The notes under the pieces are model-generated. The model had not been told where the DNA came from. It saw only the letters and a list, made by a program, of their open reading frames with translations, and did not search any database. This document shows, piece after piece, positions 17,137 through 28,213 of a stretch of 64,000 nucleotides of DNA. The DNA comes from an uncultured Candidatus Saccharibacteria bacterium (GTDB lineage Bacteria; Patescibacteriota; Dojkabacteria; SC72). The stretch's first letter is position 1; each line of letters opens with the position of its first letter. Made by a program: the position numbers and the translations under genes. Where the stretch lies: the NCBI GenBank assembly GCA_964655705.1, contig CAZZPP010000001.1:90534-154533 (forward strand), in the 5' to 3' direction.

Positions 17137-17210
17137 CGGGGTGTAGTTCAGATGGCTAGAACGCTTGCATGGGGTGCAAGAGGTCGCTCGTTCAAGTCGA
17201 GTCACCCCGA
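17137..17210 (+). tRNA. tRNA-Pro (anticodon GGG), CCA not encoded
   Basis: Manual cloverleaf: acceptor CGGGGTG/CACCCCG with the C1-G72 pair typical of bacterial tRNA-Pro and discriminator A; D-arm GTTC-AGATGGCTA-GAAC; anticodon stem CTTGC/GCAAG with loop ATGGGGT (G37); T-arm GCTCG-TTCAAGT-CGAGT. Confidence 0.85.
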
Positions 17211-17941: not shown

Positions 17942-18448
17942 ATGATAAATAAGATTGAAAATAGACAGGATTTAGAAGAACTCTTTAGATGGTTAAACGA
18001 ACCACTTTACAAATATATATATGTAAGATGTGGATATAACAGGGAGTTAGCTCAAGATATTACACAAGATGTATTTCTAAAGGTATGGGACAAGAGAGAG
18101 ACCTTTAATCCTAAGAAGTCTACACTTAAAAACTGGGTATACATTATTGCTAGAAACCATATTGTAGACCTTTACAGAAAGAAGAAGATTAACTTAAAGA
18201 CTTTAGATGAAGATATACAAGGAAGTGTTAAAGATCATAGTTTAGATACTGAGAATGAACTAATGATGTGCCAGGTGTTAAAGAATTTGAATAGGCTTAA
18301 GGAAGGGGACAAGGAGGTAATAGTACTTAGATATATTGAGGATTTAGAGATAGCTGAGGTAGCACAGATAATTGGAAAGAGTGAGAATACAACTAAAGTT
18401 ATGATACATAGAGCAGTAAAGAGATTAAAATTTTTAGTAAATAAATAA
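17942..18448 (+). CDS. RNA polymerase sigma-70 factor, ECF subfamily
   Basis: Region 2 (ITQDVFLKVWDKRETF...YIIARNHIVDLYRKK) and region 4 HTH (LRYIEDLEIAEVAQIIGKSENTTKVMIHRAVKRLK). Confidence 0.85.
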   Translation: MINKIENRQDLEELFRWLNEPLYKYIYVRCGYNRELAQDITQDVFLKVWDKRETFNPKKSTLKNWVYIIARNHIVDLYRKKKINLKTLDEDIQGSVKDHSLDTENELMMCQVLKNLNRLKEGDKEVIVLRYIEDLEIAEVAQIIGKSENTTKVMIHRAVKRLKFLVNK

Positions 18449-19320
18449 TGGATGAGAGTGAGATTTTAAAAAAATTAAGTGAATTTAAATCTAAGCCAAG
18501 TAAAAGATGGCAGGAAGAAACCTTGGAGAAGTTAAATACCACTGTAACTAATTCCTTAGATATTCGTAATAGTAATATGAACTTAAATAATTTAAATAAT
18601 TCTTTAAACATGAATAAGAAGTTCAGACCAATTGTTGCTTTAGCAACTTTAATTTTAACATTTGCTGTTTTAGGAGGAGTAGCATATGCTTCTGATTCTG
18701 CAATGCCAGGAGAGCCACTCTTTGGAGTAGATAAGGCGATGGAACAGATAAGAAGGACATTGACCTTAAATCCACTAGACAGGGCAGAGTACGAGATGAA
18801 AGTTATGGATGAGAGGATGGAAGAGTTAAAACAGATGAGCTATGAGCAGAATGCTATGGGTATCTCTAATGGTATCGAGGAGGTTGAGGCTCAACAGTTA
18901 AGATTACAGAATATGTTTGCGAATATGTCTCAATTAAGGTCAGAGGGTGATACACAGGAGGCTGAAAGACAGTTACAGGTAATGAACAAAATTGCTGAGA
19001 AACTTGCTGCACAAAGTGGTGTATTAGATCAAACTAGAGAGAAATTAATGGAGAACAAGGATGAGAGTAACTCTTCTGAGTTAGACCAACTTCAGTATCA
19101 GTATATGGAACAGGTACAAAACCAGATAGGGGAATTTGAGAATGAGACTGGGTTAAAGGTAAATACCAATACTCAAACTATTGAGCAGAATCAAGGAGAG
19201 GATTCACAGATTCAAAATGATATTCAGAATCAAGTAAATACTGGTGATGGAGATAGTAACTCGCAGGGAGTTCAGGGTGTAAGTAATAGTAATGGTTCTA
19301 ATGGTAATGGGGGTAGGTAA
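18448..19320 (+). CDS. putative anti-sigma factor (single-pass, DUF5667-like ectodomain, Gln/Asn-rich tail)
   Basis: Start overlaps the sigma stop (TAATG). ~60-aa cytoplasmic N-terminus, one TM helix (IVALATLILTFAVLGGVAYA), then an extracytoplasmic coiled-coil region. Confidence 0.55.
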   Translation: MDESEILKKLSEFKSKPSKRWQEETLEKLNTTVTNSLDIRNSNMNLNNLNNSLNMNKKFRPIVALATLILTFAVLGGVAYASDSAMPGEPLFGVDKAMEQIRRTLTLNPLDRAEYEMKVMDERMEELKQMSYEQNAMGISNGIEEVEAQQLRLQNMFANMSQLRSEGDTQEAERQLQVMNKIAEKLAAQSGVLDQTREKLMENKDESNSSELDQLQYQYMEQVQNQIGEFENETGLKVNTNTQTIEQNQGEDSQIQNDIQNQVNTGDGDSNSQGVQGVSNSNGSNGNGGR

Positions 19321-19343
19321 GAATATTGCAGAATGGTTGTAAA

Positions 19344-19368
19344 AGGGACTCCTATGGGTCCCTTTTTG
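19344..19368 (+). terminator. rho-independent terminator (AGGGAC-TCCTATGG-GTCCCT + TTTTTG)
   Basis: 6-bp GC-containing stem, 8-nt loop and a T-run, 24 nt after the anti-sigma stop. Confidence 0.6.
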
Positions 19369-19425
19369 TTTGTATTCTTTTAGATATTTTGCTACCATAG
19401 AATAATTAAAAAGTCTTTAATTTGT

Positions 19426-19442
19426 TATATATATATATATAT
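19426..19442. repeat. (TA)8 dinucleotide microsatellite ending 4 nt before the ATG of the repeat-protein gene
   Basis: Read directly: tatatatatatatatat. Confidence 0.8.
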
Positions 19443-19445
19443 TAA

Positions 19446-20774
19446 ATGGGCAAAAATAACATATTCTCATTTGTATTAGGTATGGTGATTACAGTAGTAT
19501 TAATGTTACTGCTCTACCCGTTTAAAAGGGATTCCTTAACAGAAGAAACAGGAGATGTTCAAGGTCTCTATGATAGACTACTAAGTTTGGAGTATGTGAA
19601 AGATGTCTCAAATGATGTTGAATTAATATGGAATGAAGTAGTCTCTTCATCAGAGTGGGTTCCCAGTGGTACTGTTACTACAAGTGATGTATTAGAGGGT
19701 AAAACTTTTTACAACAATTCTAGAGATATTCAAACAGGTACATATGTTCCAAAGGAGTTTGAATTTTTAGGTGATGCTTTACAAAATGATGTATTAGAGG
19801 GGAAACTGTTTTACTCTGAGGATGGTGAACTTTTAGCAGGTACTCTTAAACTACCTACTATACCCACATTAACATACAGCGGGAATGCAAGTACTAGTGA
19901 TGTACTAGCAGGTAAGACATTTTACTCTAATTCAGGGACATTAAAAACAGGAACATATACTCCCCCAGTAGTATCATATTTAGGTGATGCACTAGTAACA
20001 GATGTAATGAGTGGTAAGAAGTTCTATTCTAACTCAGGAACACTACTAACAGGGACATGGTCATTTCTAGGAGATGCAGGAGTAGATGAGGTATTAAGTG
20101 GTAAGAAGTTTTACTCTGACTCAGGTACTCTATTAACAGGTACATATACACCTCCAACACCAATAGATTTTACAAATATGCAATACAGTACATATGATGA
20201 TTATGCAGGTATTGACTATCTAGGATATGGAGGAACATTAACAGAGGATTACAAGGGAGAAGAATCAGAGTGGACAAAGATATCAGACAATATATGGAAG
20301 GATGAAAGAGCTGGGATATATTGGAGTAGTGATCAAACTAATACTATGTTAGCACAAGTTCCTTCAATACCTAATACAAACATATTTACCGCAATGTCTC
20401 TCGGCACTTGTGATTACTTTAACTCAGTACCCAGAAGTTCATATGATGGTACAGATGCTGATTGTGGTAATGCAATAAACTGGTGTGCGACATTAGAATT
20501 AGATGGTAGAAGTAATTGGTACTTACCTTCACAAAAAGAATTGATGTTAGCATACATAGATGGAATGTATAACCAAGCAGGAGAGACATTAGCAGATGCA
20601 GCATCATTTACAGTAGGAGATGGTAGTTCAATACACTATGGGTTTTATTGGTCTAGCTCGGAGGTCTCCGGCAATTCAGCGGACGCATGGGTCGTGAACC
20701 TCGGCGGTGGGTATCCCAACGTCAACTCTAAGACGACTACGGGCCGCGGTGTTCGTTGTGTGTCCCGGGACTAG
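19446..20774 (+). CDS. membrane-anchored surface protein with five ~30–40-aa tandem repeats and a DUF1566-like C-terminal domain
   Basis: N-terminal TM helix; repeats with consensus DVLxGKxFYSNSGTLLTGTYTPP; C-terminus ...YWSSS...AWVVNLGGGY...GRGVRCVSRD resembles the DUF1566 (Lcl C-terminal) ending. Confidence 0.6.
   Translation: MGKNNIFSFVLGMVITVVLMLLLYPFKRDSLTEETGDVQGLYDRLLSLEYVKDVSNDVELIWNEVVSSSEWVPSGTVTTSDVLEGKTFYNNSRDIQTGTYVPKEFEFLGDALQNDVLEGKLFYSEDGELLAGTLKLPTIPTLTYSGNASTSDVLAGKTFYSNSGTLKTGTYTPPVVSYLGDALVTDVMSGKKFYSNSGTLLTGTWSFLGDAGVDEVLSGKKFYSDSGTLLTGTYTPPTPIDFTNMQYSTYDDYAGIDYLGYGGTLTEDYKGEESEWTKISDNIWKDERAGIYWSSDQTNTMLAQVPSIPNTNIFTAMSLGTCDYFNSVPRSSYDGTDADCGNAINWCATLELDGRSNWYLPSQKELMLAYIDGMYNQAGETLADAASFTVGDGSSIHYGFYWSSSEVSGNSADAWVVNLGGGYPNVNSKTTTGRGVRCVSRD
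20650..20772 (+). other. GC-rich, NNC-codon-rich 3' segment of the gene above: candidate DGR variable region (VR)
   Basis: Abrupt switch from AT-rich codons (AGA, GGA, AAA) to CGC, CGG, GGC, GCG, GTC, CTC, CCC. Many codons end in C (gtc tcc ggc gac gtc aac ctc ggc ccc aac gtc aac ggc cgc tcc gac). Composition returns to AT-rich right after the stop. Confidence 0.4.
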
Positions 20775-20810
20775 TGTTTAGAATTTGGTAATTTAGTAAT
20801 TTTTTAATTT

Positions 20811-20833
20811 ACCCATCCACAAAGTGGATGGGT
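20811..20833 (+). other. GC-rich hairpin ACCCATCCA-CAAAG-TGGATGGGT, 37 nt downstream of the stop
   Basis: Perfect 9-bp stem read from the sequence with no following T-run, so not a canonical terminator. The position matches the hairpin/cruciform found 3' of DGR VR/IMH elements. Confidence 0.5.
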
Positions 20834-21030
20834 TGCATTAGAAGTATATTGAATTATAGGGGAATAATATTAATATCTCTGTCCCACCTTATAGTCTTTC
20901 TCTCTGTATTACTTTTTTACTTTGTATTCACAATATAGTATGTATTACTAAGTATATATATTTTAGTCATAATCATTATTTTCTGTACATATAACATACA
21001 TATGTCTTAGCATATACATGCATACTTAAA

Positions 21031-21420
21031 TTGTCATCCATATTTAATATGACAAACAAGAAGATGTTTGCATTTGTAGCAATATTTGTTTCAGTATTAG
21101 GATTTGCATTTGTAGGGGCACTTAAACCTGTAATTATTGACTATTCCATTAGGCAGTACACTACACAATCATTCTTTAATGTTAAGGATGAGGAGATACA
21201 GTTAAAAACATTACATTACAATTCAGTTGATCAATCTAGTAAAATGATTAATATGCTAAGTGATGTATTAGGGATAGGGAAGGAGGAGATAGGTATGTCT
21301 TTAAAAGGTGGTATTAAACCAAGTGAGATATTACTTAGTAATGGGATTCTTCTTTCTGATCTAGCCCAGGAGTACTCCTTTGACATTGTAGGTAATGGAT
21401 TAGTTAGATTTAGAGCGTAA
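21031..21420 (+). CDS. small hypothetical membrane/secreted protein
   Basis: 129 aa with an N-terminal hydrophobic segment (FAFVAIFVSVLGFAFVGAL). No motif recognised. Confidence 0.4.
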   Translation: MSSIFNMTNKKMFAFVAIFVSVLGFAFVGALKPVIIDYSIRQYTTQSFFNVKDEEIQLKTLHYNSVDQSSKMINMLSDVLGIGKEEIGMSLKGGIKPSEILLSNGILLSDLAQEYSFDIVGNGLVRFRA

Positions 21421-21491
21421 TACTTGATATTTTGACTAAAATATAGTATATTATAACTAGATACAACGCCTTGCGTTTTACAACGAATTAT

Positions 21492-21516
21492 AACCGGCCA
21501 TCAAGCCGGTTTTTTG
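21492..21516 (+). terminator. rho-independent terminator (AACCGGC-CATCAA-GCCGGTT + TTTTTG)
   Basis: 7-bp GC stem plus T-run. It is preceded by a smaller hairpin AACGC-CTT-GCGTT followed by TTTAC. Confidence 0.65.
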
Positions 21517-21542
21517 TTCTTTAAAATTTACTGCCTACTAAC

Positions 21543-21571
21543 CTTAGTACTAGTGGATCGCTAGTACTAAG
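21543..21571. repeat. 29-bp palindrome CTTAGTACTAG-TGGATCG-CTAGTACTAAG
   Basis: Perfect 11-bp inverted arms read directly; followed by a GTACTAA direct repeat. Confidence 0.8.
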
Positions 21572-21635
21572 TACTAAAGAAGAGACGTTTTCTTTAGTCA
21601 AAACTGTTGGACAGTGTAAGGTGACTTCACTGCAT

Positions 21636-21659
21636 GGAGTTATGTGTACACATAACTCC
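21636..21659. repeat. 24-bp perfect palindrome GGAGTTATGTGT|ACACATAACTCC
   Basis: Read directly. Nested inside a possible longer-range helix AACTGTTGG (21602..21610) / CCGACAGTT (21666..21674) that also contains a CAGTG/CACTG hairpin (21612..21632). Confidence 0.8.
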
Positions 21660-21730
21660 ATACTCCGACAGTTGCAATAAATATTCATTTCTGAAAAAAT
21701 AGGGGGTATTTAAATTAACTTTCAATATTA

Positions 21731-21934
21731 ATGAAAGTATCAATAGACCATTCTAAATGCGTTGCTTGTGGTTCATGTGTTGCAGTATGTCCAGAGGTAT
21801 TTGAAATGAAAGATGATGGGACAGTAGATGTTAAGCAGGAATTTAAGGGTAAAGATATCTCAAGGGAGTTAGAGAGTAAAGTGAAAGAGGCACATGATAT
21901 GTGTCCTTCTTTTGCAATTGTAATTGAGGAGTAA
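21731..21934 (+). CDS. ferredoxin, single [4Fe-4S] cluster type
   Basis: 67 aa with CVACGSCVAVCPEVFE ... CPSFAI, the cysteine pattern of Thermotoga/Pyrococcus-type small ferredoxins. Confidence 0.8.
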   Translation: MKVSIDHSKCVACGSCVAVCPEVFEMKDDGTVDVKQEFKGKDISRELESKVKEAHDMCPSFAIVIEE

Positions 21935-21939
21935 ATATC

Positions 21940-22521
21940 ATGGATGAAAAGATATTATGTATAAAGGGGGAGATCCTTTTTAAGGATGAAAAATGGAATG
22001 GGTTAATGACCTCTGATAAAGAGAAATATCTTTCTTTACTAAAAGAAGAGGGTGAATTTAGAGTAAGAAAGGATTTAGAATCGGACCCTGAATACAAGCA
22101 AGTTATCGCTCAAGTAATTCTTAGATACAAAGATAAATATTTTCTACATAGACAGGTTAAAAAGAATGAAGATAGATTAAACTCTCTTTGTCCTTTACCA
22201 TTAGGTGGGCATATTGAAGAGATTGATTTAGGCAAAGACAATAATATTTTAGAAACAGCGCTGGAAAGAGAGTTGCATGAAGAGGTGGTACTTGGAAGTA
22301 AAATACTTAAAAGAACATATCTAGGGTTAATATATATTGAAGATGAAAATCCTGTTAATTCTGTTCATGTGGGTTTTGTATACGTATTTGATTTAGATGG
22401 AGTGGATGTACATGTGAATGAGCAAGGGTTAGAGGATATTGGGTTTGTAAGTTTAGATTACTTAAAAACTAATACGGAGAAGTTAACGTATTGGAGTAGA
22501 ATAATAATTTATCATTTATAG
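21940..22521 (+). CDS. Nudix hydrolase
   Basis: Nudix box LGGHIEE...LETALERELHEEVV (GX5EX7REUXEEXGU). Confidence 0.7.
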   Translation: MDEKILCIKGEILFKDEKWNGLMTSDKEKYLSLLKEEGEFRVRKDLESDPEYKQVIAQVILRYKDKYFLHRQVKKNEDRLNSLCPLPLGGHIEEIDLGKDNNILETALERELHEEVVLGSKILKRTYLGLIYIEDENPVNSVHVGFVYVFDLDGVDVHVNEQGLEDIGFVSLDYLKTNTEKLTYWSRIIIYHL

Positions 22522-26275: not shown

Positions 26276-27040
26276 ATGCCAAAGGCAAAGAAGGTAGAAA
26301 AGAGTGATGAGATTGTAGTTAACCTTGATACAGTAATAATTCCAGCATCAATAGTATTGGCAGGAATAATCATTGCCCTATCAATATTTTTTACTAACAA
26401 AGGTAATGATAATACCACTTCTGATGATCAAACTCAGGGAATTCAAGAGGAAGATTCAGGTGTAGCACAAGACGAGTTTCCAGATGCTAATACAGTTATA
26501 GGGGATAGTCCCTATCTAGGTGATATTAAGAAGGCTAAGGTAGCCATAGTTGAGTATACAGATTTCCAGTGTCCTTACTGTCAAAGACATGCAACAGATA
26601 CCAAACCAAGTATTATTGCAGATTATGTAGATACAGGTAAGATTATATATGTAGTTAGAAACTTCCCATTAGATTTCCATGGAGAGATTGCAATACAGAG
26701 TGCTAATGCAGGACTTTGTGTTAATGAGTTAGCGGGAGCAAAGAAGTATTTTGAATTTTACAACCAGGGCTTTGTCAAAACATCTGTTGAAGAGTTAGCA
26801 GCAGTTGCTCAAGCATTGGGAGTAAATATGGATAAATACAATACATGTATGAGTGAGAATAGATACAAAGGGCAAATAGACAAAGATTTCGCAGATGGTC
26901 AAGCAGCAGGGGTACAGGGTACTCCAGGATTTGTAATTGGAGTATTGGATAAGGATGGTAATGTAGAGGGTAAATTAATAGCTGGTGCTTATCCATATGA
27001 GTCATTCAAAGTTCTCATTGATGAGATGTTAGGGAAGTAG
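26276..27040 (+). CDS. DsbA-family thiol:disulfide oxidoreductase, membrane-anchored
   Basis: N-terminal TM helix; thioredoxin-fold CxxC active site FQCPYCQRH; GTPGFVIG cis-Pro loop. Confidence 0.8.
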   Translation: MPKAKKVEKSDEIVVNLDTVIIPASIVLAGIIIALSIFFTNKGNDNTTSDDQTQGIQEEDSGVAQDEFPDANTVIGDSPYLGDIKKAKVAIVEYTDFQCPYCQRHATDTKPSIIADYVDTGKIIYVVRNFPLDFHGEIAIQSANAGLCVNELAGAKKYFEFYNQGFVKTSVEELAAVAQALGVNMDKYNTCMSENRYKGQIDKDFADGQAAGVQGTPGFVIGVLDKDGNVEGKLIAGAYPYESFKVLIDEMLGK

Positions 27041-27061: not shown

Positions 27062-27088
27062 AAAAGGGAGGATATCCTCCCTTTTTTC
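27062..27088. terminator. bidirectional intrinsic terminator (palindrome AAAGGGAGGAT|ATCCTCCCTTT flanked by A-run and T-run)
   Basis: Perfect 8-bp GC-rich palindrome sitting exactly between the stops of two convergent genes (27040 and 27089), with TTTTTT on the plus side and TTTT on the minus side. Confidence 0.65.
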
Positions 27089-28213
27089 TTAATTCTTTTT
27101 AATTGATTTCTTCTTACCTATCTCTTTAGATTTTGCAAATCCATCATACTTCATTCTAATTACTGAACCTATGGTTATTGCTATTAGGGAGATACTATAC
27201 AGTCCTCTAACTATTGGTATTAATTTTAATATTACAGATATACTTCGGCCAATTAGAAGAGAGATAAATCTCCCATAATCTCTCTGTTTAGTTAACTGTA
27301 ATATTTTGTGTCCTATGGCAGACTCTGTCCATATGATACCAAAGGTTGAGAGGAAGAGTAGGATACCTATCACTAAGAATGCCAATGGTACTCCTATTAA
27401 CGTAAGTAGTAGCAAAAATATTGGTATTGGTATTGCAAATATTGTTACTATTCCTACAGCATAACTTTTTAAAAGATCTGTCCATGAGGATGTAATCTTT
27501 TTTTCTATCTTTAGTGTTTTAACAGGCGCGGAAAGTATGAGAATGGTTCCTACAATGTACATTCCTACAAAGTTGATTAATCCAAGTACTAAATTAAAAC
27601 CTAAGAAATCTTCTTTTGTTAACTTAACATCTTCATCTGTCTTGGTACTCTTAGTTCCTGCTATTAGTTCTCCTGAGATATCATTTTCATCTAATGTATA
27701 GTTGTCACTCCCTATTAGGAAATCCCCTCCTACGGATGCAGTAGAGGTTAGTTGCCCTGTTACTACTCTTATATCATCTGATATTGATCCATCTATACTT
27801 AATTGGCCTGAGGCTGATAGTATATCTCCTGTAACATTAGCATTTATATCTCCTATTATTGCTGCTAGATAGATATTGTCTCTCATGGTTCCAGATATAC
27901 TTACATTGGAGCCAAGGGCTACTGTATTTCCTGATACTATTCCTGTTACTTTTATATTAGTTCCAAAGGTATACAGGTCTCCTGTGATTGTTCCATCTAT
28001 CAATATGTTTTCTCCAATTATGATTAAATCTCCATCTACTATTCCACTTATTGTTATATTGTCTCCTGTTACATACAGGTCATCTTCTACAATAGATTCT
28101 TTATCTAGGGTATACTCTCCTGTTTCCATTTTAGCTGCATATGTAGGAGTTATTAGGAGAAAGAATAGTAAGAGGGTTGATATTAATATATTTCTTATCT
28201 TTAATTTAAACAT
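27089..28213 (-). CDS. bactofilin-like beta-helical repeat domain fused to a polytopic membrane domain
   Basis: Signal peptide; ~150 aa of degenerate hexad repeats (ISGIVDGDLIIIGENILIDGTITGDLYTFGTNIKVTGIVSGNTVALGSNVSISG) as in bactofilin/DUF583 polymer-forming proteins; then ~5 TM helices and a basic C-terminal tail. Confidence 0.5.
   Translation of the reverse strand: MFKLKIRNILISTLLLFFLLITPTYAAKMETGEYTLDKESIVEDDLYVTGDNITISGIVDGDLIIIGENILIDGTITGDLYTFGTNIKVTGIVSGNTVALGSNVSISGTMRDNIYLAAIIGDINANVTGDILSASGQLSIDGSISDDIRVVTGQLTSTASVGGDFLIGSDNYTLDENDISGELIAGTKSTKTDEDVKLTKEDFLGFNLVLGLINFVGMYIVGTILILSAPVKTLKIEKKITSSWTDLLKSYAVGIVTIFAIPIPIFLLLLTLIGVPLAFLVIGILLFLSTFGIIWTESAIGHKILQLTKQRDYGRFISLLIGRSISVILKLIPIVRGLYSISLIAITIGSVIRMKYDGFAKSKEIGKKKSIKKN

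Follow-up and report, generated by a model that had tools for sequence, protein, structure and literature searches.

Palindromes upstream of a ferredoxin gene as helices of a conserved RNA

The 64-kb window analysed here (the whole stretch of DNA, with a G+C content of 32%) contains, around positions 21420–21735, an intergenic region rich in perfect palindromes, which was read in the context of 21100–22100. According to Pfam, the genes downstream of it encode a ferredoxin (21731–21934, Fer4_15/Fer4_13), a Nudix-like protein and a HIT protein, and the genes upstream, on the same strand, encode an extracytoplasmic function (ECF) sigma factor, a DUF5667 protein, an Lcl_C-domain protein and an unannotated protein of 129 amino acids. 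An earlier note on this DNA had proposed either a multi-stem structured RNA or a pair of operator sites for dimeric regulators. We find that the palindromes form the helices of a single conserved structured RNA; its gene is single-copy, is encoded on the + strand and is specific to a subclade of Dojkabacteria.

Sequence reading and repeat finding located all the sequence features that had been listed for 21421–21730, with small corrections. The perfect 11-bp arms (21543–21553 and 21561–21571), the tandem direct repeat GTACTAA (21564–21577) and the CAGTG/CACTG hairpin (21612–21632) are present as described. The perfect palindrome is there too, with a length of 28 bp (21634–21661) instead of the 24 bp given before, and the 9-bp complementarity that encloses it, AACTGTTGG (21602–21610) with CCGACAGTT, holds with its second arm moved by one base to 21665–21673. 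Of the two tandem hairpins, the terminator-like one, AACCGGC/GCCGGTT followed by T6 (21492–21516), stands. The first, AACGC/GCGTT (21465–21477), can form in the window but is not maintained in relatives: it is 83.7% paired, shows no compensatory changes and is broken by substitutions, the conserved hairpin being instead CGTT/AACG (21474–21485). A further perfect hairpin with 9-bp arms (21573–21598) had been missed. The density of palindromes is indeed unusual, as three of the 13 distinct perfect hairpins of the 64-kb window (arms of at least 9 bp, loop of at most 12) cluster in a 120-bp stretch of this region, and none of the other hairpins is as long as the 28-bp palindrome. No second copy of either long palindrome was found in the window, even when three mismatches were allowed. 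The folding energy of the 310 nt is −94.5 kcal/mol compared to −57.3 ± 4.8 kcal/mol for dinucleotide shuffles (z = −7.8), and the minus strand gives z = −6.6.

Orthologous regions were collected via the Nudix-like protein, which has many homologues of 71–94% identity from sources labelled Candidatus Dojkabacteria. These yielded 40 loci, each from the genome of a different species, and a metagenome scan with the sequence of one of the hairpins (H3, see below) added 14 further contigs. The Dojkabacteria contigs stem from anaerobic-digester or activated-sludge material, L044 from an activated-sludge assembly and L013 and L015 as AnMBR bins. The final alignment (A4) comprises 31 distinct orthologues from genomes and metagenomes of Candidatus Dojkabacteria, a member of the Candidate Phyla Radiation (CPR). 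The consensus fold was derived from it with RNAalifold, and its significance was assessed against 500 shuffles and against controls in which pairing partners were slid by 1–3 columns.

The fold contains 55 base pairs in seven helices, and the covariation analysis, which the earlier note had suggested as a check, finds compensatory changes at 27 of them. Across 1699 pair cells, 98.8% are paired, as opposed to 34–49% with slid partners, and 117 cells display changes on both sides, as opposed to 28.8 ± 4.8 in shuffles; on all five measures the observed value was attained by none of the 500 shuffles. Each helix contains at least two covarying pairs except for the stem of T1, the internal terminator described below. 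Sequence conservation is also strong: 66 of the approximately 220 columns are invariant and 54 near-invariant, and the intergenic region is 72–93% identical by BLASTN where the flanking 129-aa protein is only 32–69% identical (down to 32–45% across the species compared for RNA conservation). The structured-RNA half of the earlier proposal is thus strongly supported.

The direction of the pairing follows from its wobble pairs. Read on the + strand, G·U cells outnumber A·C cells by 109 to 6, hence the helices form in the + strand RNA, and double-stranded operator sites are excluded on this ground. In favour of DNA operators, at which dimeric regulators would control the ferredoxin promoter, are the perfect dyads that the window's genome carries 10–130 bp before the ferredoxin −35 box. 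Among orthologues, however, this symmetry is not conserved as DNA: in at least 11 of them the 28-bp palindrome has an asymmetric loop of 4–7 nt at its centre (e.g. AGCAAGA; L020, L023, L025 and others), the arms drift freely in sequence while their complementarity is kept by compensatory exchange, and one-sided changes give G·U on the + strand only. Furthermore, the ferredoxin promoter persists without the dyads in seven relatives. Taken together, the change pattern is that of RNA pairing, and we regard an operator function as extremely improbable.

Nor does a protein account for the conservation, as the earlier note had also held. No open reading frame (ORF) is conserved on either strand, and neither is a type I toxin, as open stretches are truncated at the N-terminal end or change frame from one orthologue to the next; the invariant H2–H3 segment is the sole stretch that stays open across them.

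The comparison with known RNA families, also suggested before, gave no match for the element. At gathering thresholds, the 4227 models of Rfam 15, among them those for 6S, SRP, tmRNA, RNase P, riboswitches, T-box and known sRNAs, detect only one tRNA in the window, and a permissive scan of 21300–21850 yielded as its best hit RNAI with 20.9 bits (threshold 47) on the wrong strand. The same database finds nothing inside the element at six orthologous loci, and full-text searching of the literature found no description of this RNA. Resemblance to a CsrA-type GGA decoy, to the signal recognition particle RNA, to 6S RNA or to a tRNA-like structure was weighed and rejected, as the GGA of the H2 loop is all that is conserved and no model matches. 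A covariance model built from alignment A4, on the other hand, has a single match in the 64-kb window (231.6 bits) and none in loci that lack the element or in more distant species. The RNA family is thus established as new to Rfam and as restricted to one Dojkabacteria subclade.

Anatomy of the RNA gene

The unit extends from about 21424 to 21673, and its predicted transcript measures at least 215 nt from a start near 21459 (Table 1). It consists of two domains. Domain A comprises the predicted promoter P1, the single-stranded segment AACGCCUUG, hairpin H1 and the terminator T1, and domain B comprises hairpins H2 and H3 and a three-way junction of P4, H4a and H4b. The 3′ arm of P4 shares two nucleotides with the −35 box of the ferredoxin promoter, and no terminator was found 3′ of domain B.

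Table 1 Features of the RNA gene and of the adjoining ferredoxin promoter (positions in the window).
Feature	Position	Strand	Basis or remark
P1, predicted σ70-type promoter	−35 TTGATA 21424–21429, 17-nt spacer, −10 TATATT 21447–21452	+	promoter scan
Predicted transcription start	near 21459	+	prediction from P1
Single-stranded 5′ segment AACGCCUUG	21465–21473	+	near-invariant columns in alignments A3/A4; unpaired in consensus fold
H1, small hairpin CGUU-UUAC-AACG	21474–21485	+	2 of 4 pairs compensatory, 98.4% of cells paired
Conserved spacer GAAUUAU	between H1 and T1	+	
T1, predicted internal intrinsic terminator AACCGGC-CAUCAA-GCCGGUU + U6	21492–21516	+	terminator scan; stem 100% paired, 31/31
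Variable linker	21517–21542	+	length and sequence differ among species
H2, hairpin with 11-bp arms and near-invariant 7-nt loop UGGAUCG	21543–21571	+	99.4% paired
H3, hairpin ACUAAAGAAGA-GACG-UUUUCUUUAGU with near-invariant apex GAGACGUU	21573–21598	+	99.7% paired
P4 5′ arm AACUGUUGG, closing the three-way junction	21602–21610	+	5 of 7 counted pairs compensatory, 97.7% paired
H4a, CAGUG-U-AAG-GUGA-CUU-CACUG	21612–21632	+	6 of 8 pairs compensatory, 100% paired
H4b, 28-bp perfect palindrome, in RNA a hairpin of 12–14 bp	21634–21661	+	7 of 8 counted pairs compensatory
P4 3′ arm CCGACAGUU, one G·U	21665–21673	+	last conserved position of the RNA; covariance model match ends at 21674
Ferredoxin promoter, abutting the RNA and not part of it	−35 TTGCAA 21672–21677, TG 21692–21693, −10 AAAAAT 21695–21700	+	consensus only

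The exchanges that maintain the helices are of several kinds. H1 occurs as CGUC/GACG, CAUUUC/GAAAUG and CGUAU/AUACG. Four of ten H2 pairs are compensatory (A-U to U-A and the reverse; GUAC to CUGU/ACAG in L018), and one-sided changes in this helix produce G·U on the + strand. In H3, U-A is replaced by C-G in three sequences and A-U by G-C in L028, and the loop is invariant save in L007. The inner helix of H4a alternates between AAG/CUU, GAG/CUC, GGG/CCC and GAAA/UUUC. The T1 stem varies between G-C and G·U on the + strand, with an energy of −11 to −18 kcal/mol.

Equivalents of P1, as read from the sequences, are present in 30 of the 31 orthologues and follow the layout TTGAnn, 17 (16–18) nt, TATAnn, often with an extended TG; P1 is lost in L023. 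The −10 box ends 14–17 nt ahead of the conserved anchor CCTTGCG (23 nt in the outlier L007), and P1 is retained where the RNA stands in other gene contexts (L045 and L028). In 30 of 31 the T1 stem is followed by five or more T in a row, the exception being L026 with GGTCTTTT. The view that this terminator is simply that of the upstream gene does not fit its position behind the promoter of the unit, nor the fact that it moves with the RNA into other gene contexts. A same-strand run of genes, 17942–21420, does end at T1 (within it, the start of the DUF5667 gene overlaps the stop of the ECF sigma factor gene, and the 129-aa protein has an N-terminal hydrophobic segment), and T1 may also terminate this operon.

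A third segment beyond the U-tract (e.g. AACCGACC) can pair with the 3′ arm of T1 at similar energy in 18 of the 31 orthologues, on the deeper branches, and it co-varies with that arm (GGCCGG/CCGGCC in L018, GGUCGG/CCGACC in L045). In the full-length fold of L020 the alternative hairpin formed by this segment and the T1 3′ arm is favoured; the window's own subclade lacks the segment. Upstream of T1 the alignment contains no complement of the T1 5′ arm, only about 30 nt preceding the terminator, and thus there is no classical anti-terminator. A riboswitch or attenuator with an expression platform was rejected because an upstream sensing domain and an anti-terminator are lacking and the sole alternative pairing lies 3′ of the U-tract. 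A promoter of domain B in the region of T1 and the linker was likewise discarded, as the linker is variable and carries no −10/−35 pair at a fixed spacing.

The ferredoxin promoter (in the window TTGCAA, 17 nt, TGnAAAAAT) is conserved at all loci, including those of RNA-less and more distant species. As domain B ends on the −35 box of this independent promoter, the RNA is not an ordinary ferredoxin leader. A leader had been among the functions considered in the earlier note; it is contradicted by this separate promoter downstream of the structure, which relatives without the element have kept.

The 5′ segment may serve as a seed or bind a protein, or it may pair with the H3 loop as a candidate pseudoknot. 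Within it, AACGCCUU is complementary to the H3 apex GAGACGUU at seven of eight positions, and the one lineage in which the H3 apex is altered, L007, combines a change of CG to UU there with a change of CG to AA in the 5′ segment.

Distribution, loss and transfer

The spacing between the 129-aa gene and the ferredoxin gene is bimodal, with approximately 300 nt in 18 loci and 64–73 nt in five, and with intermediates of 112 and 142 nt. At the empty sites the stop codon is joined nearly directly to ...ACAGTTGCAATA..., the start of the promoter-like element that is kept at all loci. The alignment of filled and empty sites thus defines the structured region as a discrete unit upstream of the ferredoxin's own promoter.

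Where present, the unit is complete and single. Domain A, including T1, and domain B occur together in 31 of 31 orthologues and never apart, and each of the 14 metagenome contigs carries one copy. The element always lies upstream of ferredoxin and in the same orientation, with 0–3 genes between. Two gene contexts differ from that of the window. In L028, the complete unit precedes a gene for Fe/Mn superoxide dismutase that is inserted between the RNA and ferredoxin (L028 1864–2723). In L045 and L048, the complete unit with P1 is followed by a small ORF, an ABC transporter, a cytochrome-b5-like protein, ferredoxin and HIT; the L045 locus is devoid of the 129-aa and Nudix genes. The genes that follow the RNA, among them the superoxide dismutase of L028 and the cytochrome-b5-like gene of L045, are all redox-related.

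In a neighbour-joining tree built from the Nudix protein, the RNA-bearing loci cover a large clade, and seven empty sites (L003, L005, L008, L010, L011, L014 and L022) are nested among RNA-bearing sisters. Several of these sites retain traces of the 3′ end of the unit. In L005 and L003 the deletion spares ...ATACT..ACAGTTG, which corresponds to the last part of H4b and the 3′ arm of P4. In the 112-nt spacer of L014 (2683–2794), what is left of the decayed RNA gene is a degenerate P1 with the two P4 arms (AAACTGT...ACAGTTG), everything between being deleted. In L010 and L011 everything is lost as far as the −35 box. Because 3′ remnants remain, the empty sites are deletions and not unfilled insertion targets, and, judged by the three types of breakpoint, the RNA has been lost at least three separate times, in independent deletions of a dispensable gene. 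Considering that relatives deleted it repeatedly with the ferredoxin promoter left intact, the RNA is accessory; being confined to a single subclade, in which it can be dispensed with, it is no universal component.

A possible sign of movement is seen in two pairs of loci. The RNA of L045 (6161–6380, minus strand; together with L048) is 87% identical to that of L018 (2521–2738; together with L053), while the ferredoxins are 56% identical, which hints that in this case a cassette of promoter plus RNA may have moved laterally. The same figures, together with the clean presence or absence of the unit among close relatives and its second and third gene contexts, could be taken to mean that it is a selfish or decaying mobile element, a cassette or a relative of miniature inverted-repeat transposable elements (MITEs) whose hairpins serve transposition or recombination. 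We consider this very unlikely. There is a single copy per locus, per related contig and in the 64 kb of the window, terminal inverted repeats and target duplications are missing, the 3′ remnants at empty sites speak for deletion, and the loops are under strong purifying selection in a structure that is specific to one RNA strand. A MITE or a repetitive extragenic palindromic (REP) element was rejected on these same grounds of copy number, termini and remnants. Viral contigs (searched with the H3 pattern), phage genomes and plasmid collections contain no similarity to the RNA.

Possible modes of action and known systems

Combining these findings, we tentatively propose that the gene could encode a terminator-gated regulatory RNA in two forms, a short form of about 58 nt and a read-through long form, a model which, read from sequence, falls somewhat short of being probable. 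Most transcripts from P1 would stop at T1 and yield a small RNA of about 58 nt with its conserved 5′ segment exposed. Read-through past T1 would add domain B, the invariant loops of which would bind a partner, either a protein or another RNA, and the long form might fold back on the 5′ segment via the candidate pseudoknot. Read-through transcripts would then run on into the downstream redox gene or genes.

Several observations weigh against this proposal. Where transcription starts, that it ends at T1 and that some of it reads through are each predicted. In the alignment, neither an anti-terminator nor a recognisable sensor is seen 5′ of T1, so nothing accounts for the control of the gating. 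The pseudoknot is suggestive only, as its covariation is a single evolutionary event in one lineage. The repeated losses mean that some lineages, at least, can do without the RNA. No target of the 5′ segment beyond chance was found elsewhere in the window, and an antisense action on the ferredoxin start region was rejected because in 22 species the duplex energies of the segment are no better than those of shuffled seeds; for this reason the repeat pair I3 is taken as chance. Finally, T1 could just end the small RNA and the upstream operon, in which case nothing demonstrated would account for the transcription of domain B.

A and B might instead be two adjacent, functionally separate RNAs. Domain A would be a trans-acting, base-pairing small RNA of about 58 nt, and B a stable structured RNA that is either cut out of transcripts reading through T1 or arriving from upstream, or driven by a promoter that escaped recognition. 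Domain A taken by itself has the classic layout of such a small RNA (promoter, conserved single-stranded segment, small hairpin, A/U-rich spacer, strong terminator with GC stem and U-tract), and domain B is self-contained, closed by a stem of its own and bearing invariant loops. The two domains, however, co-occur in all 31 orthologues, including both alternative gene contexts, the variable linker holds no conserved promoter, and in one lineage the 5′ segment of A and the H3 loop of B have changed in a coordinated manner. We regard separate RNAs as rather unlikely. An ordinary trans-acting small RNA would also differ from the present one in that here a conserved structured domain of 160 nt always follows the terminator, and in that the target searches with the 5′ segment, in the window and at the ferredoxin start of 22 species, gave none.

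The gene order could also fit a long cis-acting 5′ leader, in which P1 would be a second, regulated promoter of the ferredoxin–Nudix–HIT operon (or of the superoxide dismutase or transporter genes elsewhere), T1 an attenuator, and domain B a device that tunes the stability, processing or translation of the mRNA. The element is always co-oriented with and 5′ of ferredoxin at a distance of 0–3 genes, no terminator separates domain B from the next gene, and the downstream genes are redox-related (ferredoxin, Fe/Mn superoxide dismutase, cytochrome-b5-like protein). Yet the ferredoxin's own promoter, located after B, suffices in relatives that deleted the element, the order of a riboswitch (sensor, then terminator) is reversed, the large structure coming after the terminator, and pairing of the RNA with the ferredoxin start region does not rise above shuffled controls. 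A leader of this kind seems unlikely to us.

The terminator-gated model finds its nearest known functional analogy in EutX of Enterococcus and Rli55 of Listeria. In reports that appeared in Science in 2014, these are said to be small RNAs terminated by a riboswitch that exist in a short and a long form, of which the long one sequesters the ANTAR regulator EutV. The likeness lies in a promoter of its own, in a 5′ domain followed by an internal terminator that splits short and read-through forms, and in 3′ hairpins with conserved loops. The differences are that the RNA described here contains neither an adenosylcobalamin nor any other Rfam aptamer, that its 5′ domain, of only about 30 nt, lacks an evident anti-terminator, that its loops are of 7 and 4 nt and are not paired ANTAR hexaloops, and that eut genes and homology of sequence or structure are absent. 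Lacking an aptamer, ANTAR-type loops and homology, the RNA is excluded from membership of this group.

The element also resembles the orphan structured RNA motifs of bacteria found by comparative genomics (e.g. Weinberg 2010, PMC2864571), many of which are now Rfam families without an assigned function. It shares with them a lineage-restricted intergenic location, a covarying multi-helix fold and conserved loops, and differs from them in matching no Rfam 15 model, in coming from a CPR phylum and in carrying a conserved terminator in the middle of the unit.

A bolder version of the gated model, which we consider a distinctly long shot, would make the family a new class of two-domain riboregulators of the CPR. 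In such a class, a strong promoter, a tiny 5′ module and a terminator that looks unconditional would be combined with regulated or rare read-through, which adds an effector domain of 160 nt; the effector would fold back on the 5′ module, titrate a protein and couple the RNA to redox genes (ferredoxin, superoxide dismutase), and the cassette would be laterally mobile among Dojkabacteria and repeatedly lost.

CPR bacteria (Patescibacteria) have tiny genomes and are nearly all uncultured, and to our knowledge very few regulatory RNAs have been documented in them. The seven-helix family thus offers a concrete and testable case for RNA-based regulation in this group. It also provides a natural experiment in the form of close relatives with and without the RNA, which differ by a single clean deletion beside an otherwise identical ferredoxin promoter.

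Some further features of the window and the loci were noted in passing. A 24-bp perfect palindrome, AAAAGGGAGGATATCCTCCCTTTT (27062–27085), lies between convergent ORFs (26276–27040 on the + strand and 27089–28213 on the minus strand) and looks like a bidirectional intrinsic terminator. A similar element of A-tract, hairpin and T-tract (19341–19366) and a GC-rich hairpin (20811–20833) both follow genes. The 129-aa gene is preceded by an AT-rich spacer of 257 nt (20775–21030), and its TTG start is doubtful, the protein being called at 118 aa in L001. ARAGORN predicts a tRNA-Pro(GGG) at 17137–17210, while the Rfam scan at gathering thresholds reports only the tRNA at 1793–1864; a tRNA nearly identical to that at 17137–17210 is located upstream of ferredoxin in L036.

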